Shown here: piece by piece, positions 5,194 to 55,562 of the stretch
Numbering within the stretch: the stretch's first letter is position 1
Layout: the number at the start of each line of letters is the position of its first letter
Origin: Candidatus Woesearchaeota archaeon
GTDB lineage: Archaea > Nanobdellota > Nanobdellia > Woesearchaeales > ARS49
Direction: 5' to 3'
Assembly: GCA_016188265.1 (NCBI GenBank)
Contig: JACPID010000001.1
Span: 1,674 to 65,673 of the forward strand
DNA: 64,000 nucleotides
Notes under the pieces: model-generated
The model's input: only the letters and a program-made list of their open reading frames with translations
What the model was told of the DNA's origin: nothing
The model's database searches: none
Made by a program: the position numbers and the translations under genes

Positions 5194-5934
5194 TTATTCT
5201 TTTGCTGTTTGCCATAATATGTTGAAGTAGGATTTGAATGACGCGCTTATTTCTTTGCTTTGTATTAGTATTGCAAATGGTCTGTCTCCTGCTAACCATA
5301 AGAGTAGAACCGTTTTATTTCCATAAATATATATAGTCATAGGGCTTTCATGTGTTTTAGGAAGATATTTTACTTCTGTTAAAGAATAAGTCTTAAATTC
5401 TTCACCTAGTTTGACTCCTTCTCCTGTTTGGTTAATGAGTGTTTTAAGTTTTATTTTGTTTTTTATTCTTTCTTTATGAAATCTCTGAATAAAAAATAAT
5501 GGTAAGATCTGTCTACTTTTTCCTGTGGTTCCTATGGCAAACCAATCTTTTCTGGTTCTTAGAATATCATTAAGAATTGTTTTCATTCCTTCTTTATCTT
5601 CATAAACTTCAACAAATGGCTTTGAGAATGCTATTTGATGAAACGCTTTAAGATTAGGTAAAATGCTTAATATAGAATGTTCTTTTTCTTTTAAGTAATC
5701 TAAAATCTTTTCAGGAGGTGCTGCATGAAAAAATTTAATATTATTTTTGACAACATAAGAAACCAATCCGCGGCTTATGAGACTTCTTAATGTATCGTAT
5801 AGGTGTGTTCTGGATTCATTTGTTTTCTTTGCTATATCCGCTACAGTTGCTTCTTGGAGCTGTAATAGTGCTAAATATGCGTCGGCCTCTCTGTTTGATA
5901 GTCCAATTCTTATTAATTGATCTTTCTCGCTCAT
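5194..5934 (-). CDS. TrmB-family HTH transcriptional regulator (paralog 1)
   Basis: N-terminal TrmB wHTH: LSNREADAYLALLQLQEATVADIAKKTNESRTHLYDTLRSLISRGLV. Confidence 0.7.
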   Translation of the reverse strand: MSEKDQLIRIGLSNREADAYLALLQLQEATVADIAKKTNESRTHLYDTLRSLISRGLVSYVVKNNIKFFHAAPPEKILDYLKEKEHSILSILPNLKAFHQIAFSKPFVEVYEDKEGMKTILNDILRTRKDWFAIGTTGKSRQILPLFFIQRFHKERIKNKIKLKTLINQTGEGVKLGEEFKTYSLTEVKYLPKTHESPMTIYIYGNKTVLLLWLAGDRPFAILIQSKEISASFKSYFNILWQTAKE

Positions 5935-6033
5935 TTTAGCATCTTAATTGCTTTTTTTATTTAAATCTTTACTTTATTAGTCCATTAATGGACAAATATG
6001 TTTTTTATACTATGACTATTGTGTAGTGATTAA

Positions 6034-19556: not shown

Positions 19557-20291
19557 ATGATTGACAAATATAGTGAAGTTTTGAAAGAGTTTGGACTTTC
19601 AGAAAATGAAGTTAAAGTATACATAACTCTGTTAAAAACTGGAGAATCCGGTGTTCAAAATCTGGCTAAAAATGCAGGACTTCCAAGAACAACAACATAC
19701 CACCTCCTAGAAAGCTTATCACAAAAAGGTCTTGTAAGCCACATCGATAAAAATAAAATAAGATACTTCCAAGCAGCAAATCCTAAAATAATTCCAGAAA
19801 TTCTTGAAGAACAGAAAAAACACATCAAAGAAATAATTCCAGAACTCTTAACAATCGCAGAAACCTTTACAGAAAAGCCCAAAGTTGAAGTTTACGAAGG
19901 AATCAAAGGAATAAAAACAATTCTGGAAGACACACTAGAAACAAAAAAAGAAATACTTCATTATGGAGACATAATATCTTTACAAAACTCATTAAAATAC
20001 ATATTTCCTCAATTTATCAACAAAAGAGTAGAAAAGAAAATACCAATCAAAATACTCTGCAAAAAAGAAGCAGCACACAAAGAATTACTAGAAACAGCTA
20101 AAAAACAATACCGAGAATTCAAATTTATACCATCAAACTACACATTCAAATCAAGCATATTCATCTACAACAAAAAAGTAGCAATACTAAGCCTTCAACA
20201 AGAACCATACTACGGAATCATAATAGACAACGAGGATTTTCACCAAACACAAAAAAACATGTTCGAACTATTATGGCAAACAAAACACTAA
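19557..20291 (+). CDS. TrmB-family HTH transcriptional regulator (paralog 3)
   Basis: LSENEVKVYITLLKTGESGVQNLAKNAGLPRTTTYHLLESLSQKGLVSH. Strongly A/C-rich coding strand. Confidence 0.7.
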   Translation: MIDKYSEVLKEFGLSENEVKVYITLLKTGESGVQNLAKNAGLPRTTTYHLLESLSQKGLVSHIDKNKIRYFQAANPKIIPEILEEQKKHIKEIIPELLTIAETFTEKPKVEVYEGIKGIKTILEDTLETKKEILHYGDIISLQNSLKYIFPQFINKRVEKKIPIKILCKKEAAHKELLETAKKQYREFKFIPSNYTFKSSIFIYNKKVAILSLQQEPYYGIIIDNEDFHQTQKNMFELLWQTKH

Positions 20292-20358: not shown

Positions 20359-20486
20359 TGTCAAGAACCACTGGTCAATAGACCAGTGGCATGAAACTTA
20401 GGTTTCAGCATCCAGTGGTTCTTGAGCACACCAAGATTCCACTACTAAACCACTAGTGAAACACTAGTGGAATCTTAGTGTTTGAA
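20359..20486. repeat. structured intergenic repeat element, copy A (inverted-repeat termini plus a second composite hairpin)
   Basis: Inverted repeat TGTCAAGAAC...GTTCTTGAGCA closes an ~70-nt hairpin, followed by a second composite hairpin. Same termini and two-hairpin architecture as copies B and C. Confidence 0.6.
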
Positions 20487-20559
20487 ACATTATCTTCACC
20501 ACAAACCACCAACCATAAACCACAAACTAATTAAATATTACTTCTGGTTCTGCAAGTAA

Positions 20560-21645
20560 ATGCTGACAATAGATGGCTCTTATCTTGAAGGCGGCGGGCA
20601 GATTGTTCGTACTGCTGTTGGAATGTCTGCTTTGCTTGGAGAACCAGTTAAAATAATTAATATTAGAAGAAATAGGCCTAATCCAGGATTAAAAGCTCAG
20701 CATTTGCATGCAGTTAAAGCTTTGCAAGAACTTTGTGATGCTGATGTTGTTGGTTGTAAAGAAGGTTCTGATGAAATAATTTTTGCTCCAAAACAATTGA
20801 AAGCTAAAACATTAAATATTGATATTGGAACTGCTGGATCAATAGGTTTAGTGCTTCAGGCTATTCTTTTACCGTGTTGTTTTCTTGATAAATCAATTAC
20901 AATTCGTTTGAAGGGAGGTACTCATGGTAAATGGGCGATGCCTATTGAGTATATTCAAAATGTTTTAGTGCCTCATATTCAGAGATTTTGTGAAAAAATA
21001 AGCATTAATCAAGAAAAAAGAGGGTATTATCCTGCAGGAGGTGGAAAAGTTGAAGTTAAGATAAAGCCATTAATACATAGAGAAGAGTATAGTAAAGAAG
21101 ATTTCTTGAAAAAAATTGAAGAATTAAAACCAATACAATTGTTAAATCAGGGAAAGCTTTTATTTATTAAGGGAATTTCTCATGCATCAGCTTCTTTAGC
21201 AGAACGTGAAGTAGCTGAAAGACAGCTAAAATCAGCAAAAAATATTTTAAAAGAATTCAATGTTCCTGTTAATATAAGTGTTGAGTATAGTGATGCAATA
21301 TCAAAAGGTTCTGGAATTGCTTTATGGGCTGTTTTTGAAAATAAATATGGGGAAGTTGATCAGTTTAATCCTGTTATTCTTGGTTGTGATGCATTAGGTG
21401 AAAAAAATATTTCTGCTGAAAGTGTAGCAGGAATTGCTGCAAAAGAATTATACAAAGAAATAAAACAAAATGCTTGTGTTGATAGGCATTTAGCTGATAA
21501 TCTTATTCCTTGGATGGGCTTGCTTTCTGGAAGTGCATTTAAAACAAGTCTTATAACAGATCATACTAAAACAAATATTTTTAGTGTGGAAAATTTTTTT
21601 GGAAAAATGTTTAAAATTAATGAGAATGTAGTGAGAAGAATTTAA
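20560..21645 (+). CDS. rtcA: RNA 3'-terminal phosphate cyclase
   Basis: MLTIDGSYLEGGGQIVRTAVGMSALLGEPVKIINIRRNRPNPGL is the typical RtcA N-terminus; length 361 aa. Confidence 0.8.
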   Translation: MLTIDGSYLEGGGQIVRTAVGMSALLGEPVKIINIRRNRPNPGLKAQHLHAVKALQELCDADVVGCKEGSDEIIFAPKQLKAKTLNIDIGTAGSIGLVLQAILLPCCFLDKSITIRLKGGTHGKWAMPIEYIQNVLVPHIQRFCEKISINQEKRGYYPAGGGKVEVKIKPLIHREEYSKEDFLKKIEELKPIQLLNQGKLLFIKGISHASASLAEREVAERQLKSAKNILKEFNVPVNISVEYSDAISKGSGIALWAVFENKYGEVDQFNPVILGCDALGEKNISAESVAGIAAKELYKEIKQNACVDRHLADNLIPWMGLLSGSAFKTSLITDHTKTNIFSVENFFGKMFKINENVVRRI

Positions 21646-26365: not shown

Positions 26366-26478
26366 AGATCTTGCTCTTCACAAGCATTTATAATATTTTC
26401 TGGCTAATAAAATTTTAATTTCGAAACCTTTAAATATATGGTGCAGTATATTCATTACAATATTAAGATTAGGGGTGT

Positions 26479-26631
26479 GTCAAGAACTACCTATTAAATT
26501 AGGCAGCGTGTTTTCACACAGCTACTAAATCATCTGGTAGTTCTTGAGCATGATCAAAAATCACTTGTCATTTTTACTGATTAAAATCAGTAGTGTATGT
26601 TAAGGGTGATTTTTGACATGTCAAAAACATG
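26479..26631. repeat. structured intergenic repeat element, copy B
   Basis: TGTCAAGAACTACC...GGTAGTTCTTGAGCA hairpin followed by AAAATCACTTG...GGGTGATTTTT hairpin with inner TACTGATTAAAATCAGTAG stem. About 85% identical to copy C over the 5' half. Confidence 0.6.
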
Positions 26632-26947
26632 CCAAAAATTGCATGTTTTTATAAAAATATTAAGAAGGTGGTTTGCTTTGAAAAATAAAGAAATTTTTAA
26701 AACATTTTTTAGAGAGAAACCAGCTATGATGTTGGTTCACTTGCGTAATGCAAAGTCAGAAGTATATGCTTCTTCTTTAGCAAAACAAATTGATTGCACA
26801 TATTCTCATGTTGTAAAAGTTCTTCAAGAAATGCAGAATGAAGAATTAATTAATTTTGACAAGCAAGGCAGATTAAAGCTGCTTTCTTTAACAAAGAAAG
26901 GACAAGATGTTGCAAATAAAATTACAGATATAAGAAATTTGTTATAA
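26597..26947 (+). CDS. small winged-helix transcriptional regulator (start uncertain)
   Basis: YSHVVKVLQEMQNEELINFDKQGRLKLLSLTKKGQDVANKI wHTH. The N-terminal part of the ORF overlaps repeat copy B, so the true start may be the internal MM near 26726. Confidence 0.45.
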   Translation: MLRVIFDMSKTCQKLHVFIKILRRWFALKNKEIFKTFFREKPAMMLVHLRNAKSEVYASSLAKQIDCTYSHVVKVLQEMQNEELINFDKQGRLKLLSLTKKGQDVANKITDIRNLL

Positions 26948-52694: not shown

Positions 52695-53743
52695 AAAAGA
52701 TTTTGGCTGAGTTTAAAGTAAACTATATTCAAGTACTTGATGAAAGAGGTGAAGTGGACAAAAAATTAATGCCAAAATTTTCAAAAAATCAAATTAAAAA
52801 TATGTATTAATTAATGCTTTTAACTCGTGCTTTTGATGAAAAGGCTCTTTTACTTCAAAGGCAAGGGCGTTTGGGAACTTATGCTGTTTCAAGAGGCCAA
52901 GAAGCTGCGCAAATTGGTTCTGCTTTAGCTTTGAAAAATGATGACTGGGTTGTGCCAAGTTTTCGTGAGCAGGGTGTTTTTATTGCATTGGGATATCCTT
53001 TGCACCAGTTATACCAGTATTGGGGTTGGGATGAGAGAGGTATGAATATTCCTAAAAAATTTAGTATTCTTCCAATTACTATTCCTGTTAGCGCTCAAAT
53101 TCCTCATGCTGTTGGAATTGCATATGCATTAAAGTTAAGAAATGAAAAAAAAGTAGTTGCATGCTATTTTGGTGATGGGGGAACAAGCAAAGGAGATTTT
53201 CATGAAGGCCTAAATATGGCAGGTGTGTGGGCTCTTCCTGTTGTTTTTATTTGCCAAAATAATCAGTGGGCAATAAGTGTTTCTAGAAAAAAACAAAGTG
53301 CTTCAAAAACATTGGCGCAAAAAGCTATTTCTTATGGATTTGAAGGTATTCAGGTTGATGGCAATGATGTTTTTGGTATTTACAAGGTTGTTTCTGAAGC
53401 TGTAAAAAAAGCAAGAAGCGGAAAAGGGCCTAGTTTAATTGAGTGTTTTACTTACAGAATCGGAGATCACACAACTTCTGATGATGCTTCACGTTATCGT
53501 TCAAAAAAAGAAGTTGAAAGCTGGATTAAAAAAGATCCTATTGAACGCTTAAGAAAGTATATGAAAAAAAAAGAAATGTGGACAAAGATGTATGAAAAAC
53601 AATTGAAAAAAAAAATAGGCAAACAAGTAAAAGAAGCTGTTGAAAGATTTGAAAAAATCCCTAAACAAAATCCAGAGGAAATGTTTAGATATGTTTATGC
53701 TGAAATGCCTTGGTTTTTAAAAGAAGAGATGAGAGATATATGA
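52691..53743 (+). pseudogene. pdhA: 2-oxoacid dehydrogenase E1 alpha subunit interrupted by an in-frame TAA at 52808..52810
   Basis: The upstream 39 codons (MKKILAEFKVNYIQVLDERGEVDKKLMPKF...) and the listed ORF LMLLTRAFDEKALLLQRQGRLG are in one frame. Together they reconstitute the conserved E1alpha N-terminus. The TPP motif YFGDGGTSKGDFHEGLNMA is intact. Confidence 0.6.
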
Positions 53744-54489
53744 GTATTTTGCAAGTTATGAATTTAGGATTGAAAAGATATTATGAAGTGTTAAAATTAC
53801 AAGAAGAACTTGTTAAAAAAAGATTGGAAAATAAAATTCCTGATACTCTTATTATAACAGAACACCCGCCTGTTATTACTTTTGGCTTTAATAAAAAGTG
53901 GAATAAAATGCATGTATCTATTGATGAACTTGCAAAAAGAGGTGTTGAATTTTATTATTCATCAAGAGGTGGAGGTGCTACTTGTCTGGCTCCTGGAACT
54001 ATTGTTTGTTATACAATTATTGATTTAAATGAAAGAAAAATAAGTATTGGCAATTATATGAATCTTATTGAAAAAGTTATGCTTAATGTTTTTAGTTCAT
54101 ATAATCTTAAGGCATATATTCGTACAGGTTTTAATCCAACAACACAAAGGCCTTATAAGGGTGTGTGGTATTTTTATAATGAAAAAGAAAATAAGTTAGG
54201 TGCAAAAGGAGTGTTTATTAAAAAGTGCAATGGAAGAGATGTAACAATGTATGGATTTTCAATGTATTTTAAAAAAGAAGGTTTGCAATATTTTGATTTA
54301 ATTGATCATTGCGGGTTTAAAAGAGAACAAGTAGGTGTGATTTCAATGGAAGATATACTAGGTTATACTCCTAATAAAGAAGATGTTGTTAAAAAAATTG
54401 TTGAGAGTTTCAAAAAAGAGTTAAATTATGATTTTGTCAAGAACTACATACTAAAGGAGGTAGCGTGTTTACACACAGCTACAAAATGA
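53740..54489 (+). CDS. lipoate-protein ligase / octanoyltransferase family protein
   Basis: BPL/LPL catalytic-domain layout with SRGGGATCLAPGTI. The last ~18 codons lie inside repeat copy C. Confidence 0.55.
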   Translation: MSILQVMNLGLKRYYEVLKLQEELVKKRLENKIPDTLIITEHPPVITFGFNKKWNKMHVSIDELAKRGVEFYYSSRGGGATCLAPGTIVCYTIIDLNERKISIGNYMNLIEKVMLNVFSSYNLKAYIRTGFNPTTQRPYKGVWYFYNEKENKLGAKGVFIKKCNGRDVTMYGFSMYFKKEGLQYFDLIDHCGFKREQVGVISMEDILGYTPNKEDVVKKIVESFKKELNYDFVKNYILKEVACLHTATK

Positions 54490-54575
54490 TCAAGTAGTTC
54501 TTGATCACTGTTGAAAACTGCTTGTCGTTTCTACTGACTTAAGTCGGTAGTGTACCTCAAGAGCAGTTTTCAATG
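54435..54575. repeat. structured repeat element, copy C, overlapping the 3' end of the lipoate-ligase gene
   Basis: TGTCAAGAACTAC...GTAGTTCTTGATCA hairpin; block GGTAGCGTGTTTACACACAGCTACAAAATGATC matches copy B (GGCAGCGTGTTTTCACACAGCTACTAAATCATC). Second hairpin TTGAAAACTGCTTG...CAAGAGCAGTTTTCAA with inner CTACTGACTTAAGTCGGTAG. Confidence 0.6.
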
Positions 54576-54593
54576 TATTAAAGGTGAAATTGT

Positions 54594-55562
54594 ATGCCAG
54601 TTATGAATATGGTTAATGCATTGAATCTTGCATTAAGGCAAGAAATGAAAAAAGACAATAGTGTTGTTGTTTTAGGTGAAGATGTTGGCATTAATGGCGG
54701 AGTTTTCAGAGTTACAGATGGCTTATTGAAATTATATGGTAAAAAAAGAGTTATTGATACCCCTCTTGCAGAGTCTGGAATTATTGGCGCTTCAATAGGC
54801 ATGGCTATTAATGGTTTAAGGCCTGTTGCAGAAATCCAGTTTAGTGGTTTTATGTATTCTACTTTTGATCAAATTATATCTCATGCATCTAGAATAAGAA
54901 ATCGTTCAAGAGGAAGATATTCTTGCCCTGTTGTTATTAGAACTCCTTATTCTGGAGGAATAAAGGCTTTAGAGCATCATTCAGAAAGCATGGAAGCATT
55001 ATATACACATATTCCGGGAATTAAGGTTGTTATTCCTTCAACACCGGCTGATGCAAAAGGTTTATTGATTAGTGCTATTCGTGATCCTGATCCAGTTATT
55101 TTTTTAGAACCAAAGAGAATATACAGGGCTGTTAAAGAATATGTTCAAGAAAATGAATACATAATTCCTATTGGAAAAGCTAGGCTTGTTCGTGAAGGAA
55201 ATCAAGTTAGTATTATTTGTTGGGGTGCTATGGTCCGTGAGTGTGAACGTGCTGTATTGCAGTCAGGAATTGATGCTGAAATTATTGATTTAAGATCATT
55301 AAAACCTTTTGATGTTGATTTAATAATTGAAAGTGTTAAAAAAACTCGCAGAGTAGTTGTTGTTCATGAGGCTCCGAAAACAAATGGTTTTGGTGCAGAA
55401 ATTATTGCAACCATAAATGAAAATGCATTATTATATTTGGATGCTCCGCCAATAAGAGTAACTGGTTTTGATAGTGTAATTCCTCTTGGAAAACTTGAAG
55501 ATGTTTATTTGCCTAATGTTGAAAGAATTAATAAAGCATTGCAAAAAGTGGTGAGTTTTTAA
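54594..55562 (+). CDS. pdhB: 2-oxoacid dehydrogenase E1 beta subunit
   Basis: VVVLGEDVGINGGVFRVTDGLLKLYGKKRVIDTPLAESGIIGASIGMA is the typical E1beta N-terminus. AGGTGA Shine-Dalgarno-like motif upstream. Confidence 0.8.
   Translation: MPVMNMVNALNLALRQEMKKDNSVVVLGEDVGINGGVFRVTDGLLKLYGKKRVIDTPLAESGIIGASIGMAINGLRPVAEIQFSGFMYSTFDQIISHASRIRNRSRGRYSCPVVIRTPYSGGIKALEHHSESMEALYTHIPGIKVVIPSTPADAKGLLISAIRDPDPVIFLEPKRIYRAVKEYVQENEYIIPIGKARLVREGNQVSIICWGAMVRECERAVLQSGIDAEIIDLRSLKPFDVDLIIESVKKTRRVVVVHEAPKTNGFGAEIIATINENALLYLDAPPIRVTGFDSVIPLGKLEDVYLPNVERINKALQKVVSF

Follow-up and report, generated by a model that had tools for sequence, protein, structure and literature searches.

The Correia elements of Neisseria and the ERIC/IRU repeats of enterobacteria are bacterial MITEs that reshape gene ends, the former duplicating a TA target, and BOX and RUP of Streptococcus pneumoniae are modular mosaic repeats. 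The right end of IS608 reads ...TCAA. REP sequences are recognized by a palindrome whose 5' end carries the tetranucleotide GTAG or CGTC (PMC3733652). RAYT subclasses have not been reported in Archaea, where the Y1 enzymes on record are limited to TnpA of the IS200 type (PMC6006769). According to a published MITE census, a Woesearchaeal genome carries 105 MITEs per Mb, among the highest archaeal densities; the repeat family presented here is not described there (PMC11602168).

We analyzed a 64 kb stretch (hereafter, the window) of an AT-rich contig from a Candidatus Woesearchaeota MAG, in which a copy of a palindromic repeat forms the end of a lipB-like gene. Like bacterial MITEs, the family to which this copy belongs falls within 100–160 nt, is ORF-less, multi-copy and mostly intergenic, has a stable secondary structure and ends that form an imperfect inverted repeat at consensus level, and can sit between cistrons, where it can supply stop codons or alter the mRNA; it differs from them in its DPANN archaeal hosts, in having neither a target-site duplication nor a matching transposase-bearing parent among the loci searched, and in terminal repeats that each pair with an internal inverted copy, giving two compound hairpins. 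With REP/BIME/REPIN-RAYT systems it shares the short modular extragenic palindromes (here with variable numbers of CAGAAAT...ATTTCTG hairpins), the lack of a target-site duplication, long persistence and conservation across related genomes. Unlike in those systems, the palindrome carries no GTAG or CGTC 5' tag (the element termini are TGTC..., and the feet of the hairpins read CCAC/GTGG or, arranged the other way round, CTAC/GTAG), no RAYT was found in the window and the loci, and the copies accumulate not downstream of genes but on the promoter side, in divergent intergenic regions. Same-sense subterminal hairpins, small size and no target duplication are features in common with the PATEs of IS200/IS605, from which the family is set apart by the inverted-repeat relation of its ends in the consensus, by the lack of a TnpA/TnpB partner in the loci searched, and by having no conserved tetranucleotide target or strand bias. 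BOX and RUP are likewise modular mosaics with variable internal units, a strong predicted fold and intergenic positions within operons, but their sequences, hosts and module logic are different. The family fits the definition of a small, ORF-less, multi-copy palindromic repeat, but every one of the specific classes has one or more defining features that it lacks.

Copies of the repeat in the window

A covariance model built from 13 seed members of the B/C subfamily and searched over the 64 kb window recovered exactly three copies, the next best match having E = 0.57. Copy C, at the end of the lipB-like gene, extends over 54435..54582 on the plus strand (138.9 bits, model positions 1–153), with a T at −1 and a core of 146 bases (54436–54581). 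Its sister, copy B, is found at 26478..26625 (+; 139.1 bits), and copy A, which is canonical for the main subfamily and was outside the seed, at 20359..20487 (+; 51.7 bits, E = 8e−10), with a TrmB-like gene on one side and RtcA on the other. No copy is closer to B than C, or to C than B (74–79% identity over ~145 nt), and copy A has the outer stem and overall architecture in common with them, nothing more. The original prediction, which regarded the block in copy B as intergenic, was right in this respect, as copy B is located between a minus-strand XPD-like helicase gene and a winged-helix gene.

Two compound hairpins are predicted for each copy in the window (−52 to −54 kcal/mol, z ~ −7), the individual values being −54.1 kcal/mol and z = −7.0 for copy C, and z = −6.6 for copy A. 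Domain 1 of copy C (54436..54504, +; predicted fold) has an outer stem formed by GTCAAGAACTAC (54436–54447) and GTAGTTCTTGA (54494–54504), with a degenerate small hairpin (54444–54463, +) and the hairpin GTAGCGTGT-TTAC-ACACAGCTAC (54460–82, +) in its interior. Domain 2 (54511..54573, +; fold and covariation) is closed by a basal stem of TTGAAAACTGC (54511–21) and GCAGTTTTCAA (54563–73) and contains the inner hairpin CTACTGAC-TTAA-GTCGGTAG (54531–50, +). It is followed by the conserved 3' tail TGTATTAA (54574..54581, +; family consensus YRT-N-T-N-AA), which abuts AGGTGA and sets the end of the element at ~54581/54582, not at 54575 as had been proposed. The proposed start at 54435 correctly placed the beginning of the element inside the gene, but was one base off, the boundary of the family consensus falling at T54435/G54436.

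The element sequence of copy C is identical in three independent Logan assemblies from the same population and is therefore not an assembly artefact. Across the 241 nt around this copy, the sole difference is found at 54582, the first base past the element, where the window has an A and the three Logan assemblies a G; this SNP changes the context of the E1beta Shine-Dalgarno sequence from AAAGGTGA to AAGGGTGA.

Other observations concern the surroundings of copies A and B. Copy A follows directly after the gene of the TrmB-like regulator, 72 nt upstream of the RtcA (RNA 3'-terminal phosphate cyclase) gene at 20560–21645. Bacterial rtc operons can have structured Y RNAs alongside; there was no evidence supporting a link between copy A and rtc, and the neighbours of the other copies are unrelated. 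The longest ORF of the winged-helix gene 3' of copy B (26597–26947) has its ATG inside the 3' part of the element, and since its Pfam match starts only at residue 43, the true start is probably further downstream and the annotation may overextend into the repeat. A 78-nt inverted repeat (5546–5623 and 19874–19951, 73% complementarity) lies within two opposed ORFs of ~245 aa, at 5194–5934 (−) and 19557–20291 (+), and is probably due to TrmB-like paralogues, not to a repeat element.

The end of the lipB-like gene

The ORF that runs into copy C (53740–54489, +) encodes 249 residues, ends in ...ELNYDFVKNYILKEVACLHTATK followed by TGA (54487–54489), and has an exact protein match on record (HYV79_00385). 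The Pfam annotation agrees with the previously suggested order of an E1alpha / ligase / E1beta / E2 operon, with the correction that the "ligase" is LipB-like (LplA-B_cat in Pfam, LipB in NCBIfam); by its sequence, the host gene is classified as a lipoyl(octanoyl) transferase of the LipB-like type and not among the ATP-dependent lipoate ligases. The LplA-B catalytic domain is complete (PF21948, profile positions 2–200 of 200 at residues 14–225, E = 3.7e−28), K152 and C191 are invariant across the alignment with 14 homologues, and the best NCBIfam matches are all LipB, although their scores stay under the curated cut-offs (88.7 vs 155 bits). The closest LipB homologues (≤ 36% identity) occur in LipB-LipA or E2-E3-LipB contexts.

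Pfam, NCBIfam and the homologue alignment support residues 1–232 (53740..54435, +) as the native part of the gene. The Pfam match finishes at residue 225, the NCBIfam LipB matches all finish at residues 226–234, and the likeness to the 14 homologues, all of them ≤ 36% identical, ceases at ...ELNYD, beyond which they have unrelated tails of 0–25 aa; an alignment of this kind had been suggested with the original prediction, and its outcome agrees with it. From codon 233 on, beginning with its first base, the sequence belongs to the element, which encodes the tail VKNYILKEVACLHTATK together with the TGA stop (54436..54489, +), without homology to LipB tails. The view that the last ~18 codons come from the element holds for the origin of the tail and needs a small correction in number: G54436 is the first base of a Val codon, so that 17 codons plus the stop are wholly within the element, and the preceding Phe codon contributes its third base only. 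In the predicted fold, the lipB stop codon is found in a single-stranded stretch right before the 3' arm of domain 1.

The neighbouring junctions in the operon overlap, by 4 nt for E1alpha/lipB, 1 nt for E1beta/E2 and 4 nt for E2 and the next gene. The sole gapped junction is that of lipB and E1beta, where copy C occupies the 104 nt; its 3' flank (54582..54596, +) consists of the Shine-Dalgarno sequence AGGTGA (54582–87) and the E1beta ATG (54594). When 54436–54581 were removed in silico, the reading frame ended in ...ELNYDFR* after 233 aa, at the TGA within AGGTGA, 6 nt before the E1beta ATG, and moving the deletion boundaries by up to 2–3 nt still gave 231–244 aa, inside the length range of the homologues. 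The profile ends, the homologue tails, the junction gap and the restored stop all support the proposed insertion of the element into the 3' end of the gene. That it replaced the native tail was overstated: judging from the homologues, LipB is annotated with a C-terminus that is foreign to the protein, but the native residues lost would number at most ~0–12, and most likely 1–2 plus the stop. With the element at the lipB end and so few native residues lost, the change would amount to a displaced stop and a gain of 17 foreign residues.

The family in DPANN genomes

The family was searched with the pattern GTCAAGAACYAC-N30-60-GTRGTTCTTGA, in one genome per species, and the outer-stem pattern was present in at least 114 contig stretches, giving 123 oriented instances. 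Nearly all of the matches listed are from MAGs of Woesearchaeota, Nanoarchaeota/Nanoarchaeia, Pacearchaeota and Aenigmatarchaeota, or from TPA MAGs labelled Methanosarcinales, and viral contigs had no matches to the element pattern. Altogether the element is found at well over 100 unrelated sites in ~65 DPANN MAGs, sharing the sharp 5' end T/GTCAAGAAC (the slash marks the boundary of the element). Its members are 120–160 nt long and without an ORF. The consensus of the 5' half is T/GTCAAGAA-CCAC-(NNGTC-ANAG-ACNN)-GTGG-CATGA-(variable hairpin)-GTGGTTCTTGA-GCATG-c-, and it continues 3' of GCATG-c as TCAGAAAT..CCAC-(spacer)-CCAC-(same small hairpin)-GTGG..ATTTCTGA-CAT-NTNAA/. The outer stem of 12 bp is invariant and the 3' end is conserved across the family. 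Seven of the 12 pairs in the basal stem of domain 2 changed in a compensatory way, and the linker triplet covaries with the 3' triplet (AUG-CAU, ACA-UGU, GUG-CAC, ACU-AGU). We wrote the outer ends of the element as TGTCAAGAACCAC...GTGGAATTTCTGACA; in the consensus, TGTCAAGAACCAC corresponds to the 3' end TGTCAGAAATCCAC read as its reverse complement, a tail of 7 nt coming after the latter, and the two make an imperfect inverted repeat whose ungapped matches in single copies are barely above shuffled controls. The segment TTCCAC...GTGGAA is reminiscent of archaeal origin-recognition boxes (ORB).

Near-identical copies were observed in several places. Locus L089 has two copies of 168 nt that are identical but for the final base, at or beyond the element end; they have unrelated flanks and part company right after ...CATATTAA. 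Near-identical copies, in triplets, are also present in L040 and L075. Several types of domain 2 exist, each of them found again in different MAGs.

Some loci illustrate the variation of the modules. Within MAG PCYA01 (L023, L027, L083, L089, L102), a near-identical domain 1 (no difference over 79 nt between L023 and the two copies of L089, 1–4 differences in L027, L102 and L083) is joined to at least three domain 2 types, a pattern that suggests that modules are exchanged or that each half can move independently. Additional small hairpins (CAGAAAT-loop-ATTTCTG), one to four in number, stand between the domains in L080 (3637–3770), L093 (6121–6281), L099, L114 and L030, which looks like modular growth by analogy with BIME or BOX mosaics. 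Back-to-back inverted copies occur in L042 at 5659–5807 (+) and 5831–5976 (−), and L043 holds three copies within ~1.1 kb (928–1079, 1671–1774 and 1872–1973), all on the minus strand. The 12-bp outer stem with CATG directly after it, but with a different interior, was also found on GC-rich contigs of bacterial MAGs, namely in L072, L086 and L097 (a MAG with the label Phycisphaerales) and in L006 (label Aminicenantes); these may be contamination, a distant bacterial relative or chance matches. The 3' tail (TTTAAA, TATTAA, TTTTA) is similar to an archaeal TATA box, for instance in L005, L023 and L029 (...GATGTTTAAAA), and many co-oriented downstream genes begin 13–60 nt past it, so that, by sequence resemblance, the element might carry an outward-facing promoter.

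The end of lipB is not the only gene end involved. Among 72 elements examined, 16 ORF stop codons were flagged inside the element, of which we set aside three with implausibly long overlaps of 44–53 codons and two whose end coincided with the boundary. This left 11 elements, found in either orientation, that each give 4–17 codons to an ORF of ≥ 100 aa beside them, which means that about one sixth of the elements hold a neighbour's stop codon.

The sole Rfam 15 family to reach its gathering score in the window was a tRNA, while copy C, copy A and L089, scanned by E-value up to E = 10, returned only sub-threshold miRNA/snoRNA noise. In the literature searched, the core GTCAAGAACCAC was met only incidentally, in three unrelated eukaryotic papers, and the search for Woesearchaeota ncRNAs and DPANN MITEs returned a generic census only. 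The family appears to be undescribed and to belong to the interspersed palindromic repeats.

Nature and probable mobility of the element

The large family to which copy C belongs probably consists of non-autonomous, MITE/REP-like mobile DNA elements, and copy C would have inserted between the end of LipB and the E1beta ribosome-binding site. The members are made of two compound palindromes, with outer ends (TGTCAAGAACCAC vs TGTCAGAAATCCAC) forming an imperfect terminal inverted repeat in the consensus, and would be mobilized in trans. One copy would have landed in the tightly packed E1alpha-lipB-E1beta-E2 operon, past the last conserved LipB residues, and cut lipB off from its original stop, probably the TGA at 54585–87 inside AGGTGA. 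Translation of lipB would then run 17 codons into domain 1 up to the first in-frame TGA, and the product would keep the whole LipB catalytic domain and end in 17 residues of foreign tail.

The genomic context of the family was consistent with this reading. Based on our own, approximate ORF calls, elements in tandem gene pairs were co-oriented in 13 cases and anti-oriented in 12, and 26 sites were in divergent and nine in convergent regions. The neighbours of the copies are unrelated housekeeping genes, no flanks are common to two copies, and no recurrent neighbouring protein was detected (the largest cluster had three members among 431 ORFs). Random orientation, unrelated neighbours and near-identical copies are, as far as sequence can tell, the habits of a proliferating non-autonomous DNA repeat, and the near-identical copies with unrelated flanks (L089, L040, L075) suggest that the family was recently active in multiple copies. 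Other results did not support a simple MITE: no ORF-bearing autonomous relative was present among ~120 instances with 8 kb of context each (~0.9 Mb), the HUH/Y1 motif was absent from the window and the loci, viral contigs had no copies, and the flanks gave no sign of a target-site duplication, as the longest words shared by the 5' and 3' flanks were distributed as in shuffled pairs.

The empty allele of copy C would read ...AAATTATGATTTT[A/G]GGTGAAATTGTATG. This predicted site was absent from the metagenome contigs, no flank-spanning match indicative of empty sites was found among the loci, and copy C was present in four of the four assemblies compared (fixed). Exact-protein look-ups of the TrmB-like and E1beta proteins for strain variants gave no match, and no sister genome was found, the nearest LipB homologues being ≤ 36% identical. 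As neither an empty site nor a sister genome was found, the insertion of copy C is something that we infer rather than observe.

A possible but considerably less probable explanation is that the family represents a functional structured RNA, either a protein-binding ncRNA or a cis-acting mRNA element involved in processing, stability or termination, with copy C as an intercistronic module regulating lipB and E1beta. The folds (z ~ −7) point in this direction, and so does the alignment of 13 sequences, in which 95.8% of the cells were paired vs 32–44% with slid partners, and 14 of 37 pairs had compensatory changes vs 1–4 in the slid controls. Also in favour of an RNA are the subtypes with conserved internal loops that were found again across MAGs, the within-genome sisters B and C, which hold their stems by compensatory change, the A-rich loops of the small hairpins, which keep the same strand sense at both ends, and the conserved RUGA and CUGA motifs. 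On the other side, there was no match in Rfam even at E = 10, no TATA box or promoter was found at a fixed distance upstream of the oriented instances, and the orientation relative to flanking transcription is random (13 vs 12 in tandem contexts). The G-U pairs, 201 on the plus strand of the element vs 241 on its complement, are in excess on neither strand, and the best-covarying stem, the basal stem of domain 2, contains solely double Watson-Crick substitutions, with one-sided changes absent and no wobble intermediates. The near-identical copies in unrelated flanks and the non-syntenic positions also speak against a structured RNA.

Particular RNA types were considered as well and rejected. 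For H/ACA, C/D-box and K-turn RNAs, examined by eye, the ACA/ANA boxes were inconsistently placed and RUGA and CUGA were not joined by a stem. A riboswitch or 5'-UTR element did not fit the downstream genes, which are unrelated and to which the orientation of the element is not tied, and an independent sRNA gene was rejected on the absence of a TATA box at a fixed distance.

The mobile-element reading is also not without tension in its simplest, MITE-like form. Copies B and C are 26% diverged, yet their stems were kept through six double compensatory changes, and together with the subtypes recurring across MAGs this suggests that the hairpins are selected or palindrome-corrected and not decaying like those of dead MITE copies. 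It is conceivable, if doubtful, that the family is an undescribed DPANN class with hairpins actively maintained at individual loci, being either a two-hairpin protein-binding RNA with a swappable domain 2, or the substrate of a new hairpin-recognizing mobilization system that works without target duplication or a known transposase.

Derivation from IS200/IS605 elements is unlikely. As a PATE, the element would be moved as ssDNA by a Y1 HUH transposase recognizing two same-sense subterminal hairpins, and the same small hairpin (CCAC..GTC-ANAG-AC..GTGG) indeed stands near both ends in the same orientation, with 8 nt separating it from the 5' terminus and ~17 nt from the 3' terminus. The lack of a target-site duplication and the 3' end of the element, which often reads ...TCAA and resembles the right end of IS608, agree with this as well. 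However, a regex for the HUH/Y1 transposase motif had no matches in the window and the loci, neither tnpA nor tnpB adjoined any copy in the loci, and only base −1 is conserved (T in 86% of the instances, upstream information content ≤ 0.25 bit) instead of a target of 4–5 nt. Neighbouring copies on one contig had the same orientation in ~9 cases and the opposite in ~7, without local strand bias and hence without a replication-strand bias, and the ends form, at consensus level, an imperfect inverted repeat, which is absent from IS200/IS605 elements. Integron attC sites were rejected, as the copies are 6–28 kb apart among housekeeping genes and form no cassette arrays.

The reverse scenario, in which the repeats originated from the lipB 3' end or LipB had the tail ancestrally, has nothing in its favour beyond the overlap itself and is hardly credible, because the element, with its sharp 5' end unchanged, is present at > 100 unrelated DPANN sites in other genomes, none of them beside lipB among the matches listed, LipB homologues have no similarity to the tail, and the profiles end at residues 225–234.

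Conclusions

What happened at the end of lipB would be an ordinary consequence of the insertion of a mobile repeat. The junction between lipB and E1beta would have been remodelled by it, with the translational coupling probably lost and a very stable double hairpin (predicted at −54 kcal/mol) placed in the mRNA. The family, unusually conserved across DPANN lineages, spans ~65 MAGs and combines an invariant stem of 12 bp with a modular architecture and clear compensatory evolution, and the element can serve as a handy marker for DPANN contigs. With about one in six elements changing how a neighbouring ORF ends, these reduced genomes repeatedly acquire annotation artefacts and minor C-terminal changes from it. 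If the hairpins are functional, the family would represent a new class of RNA or DNA elements in poorly understood archaea.
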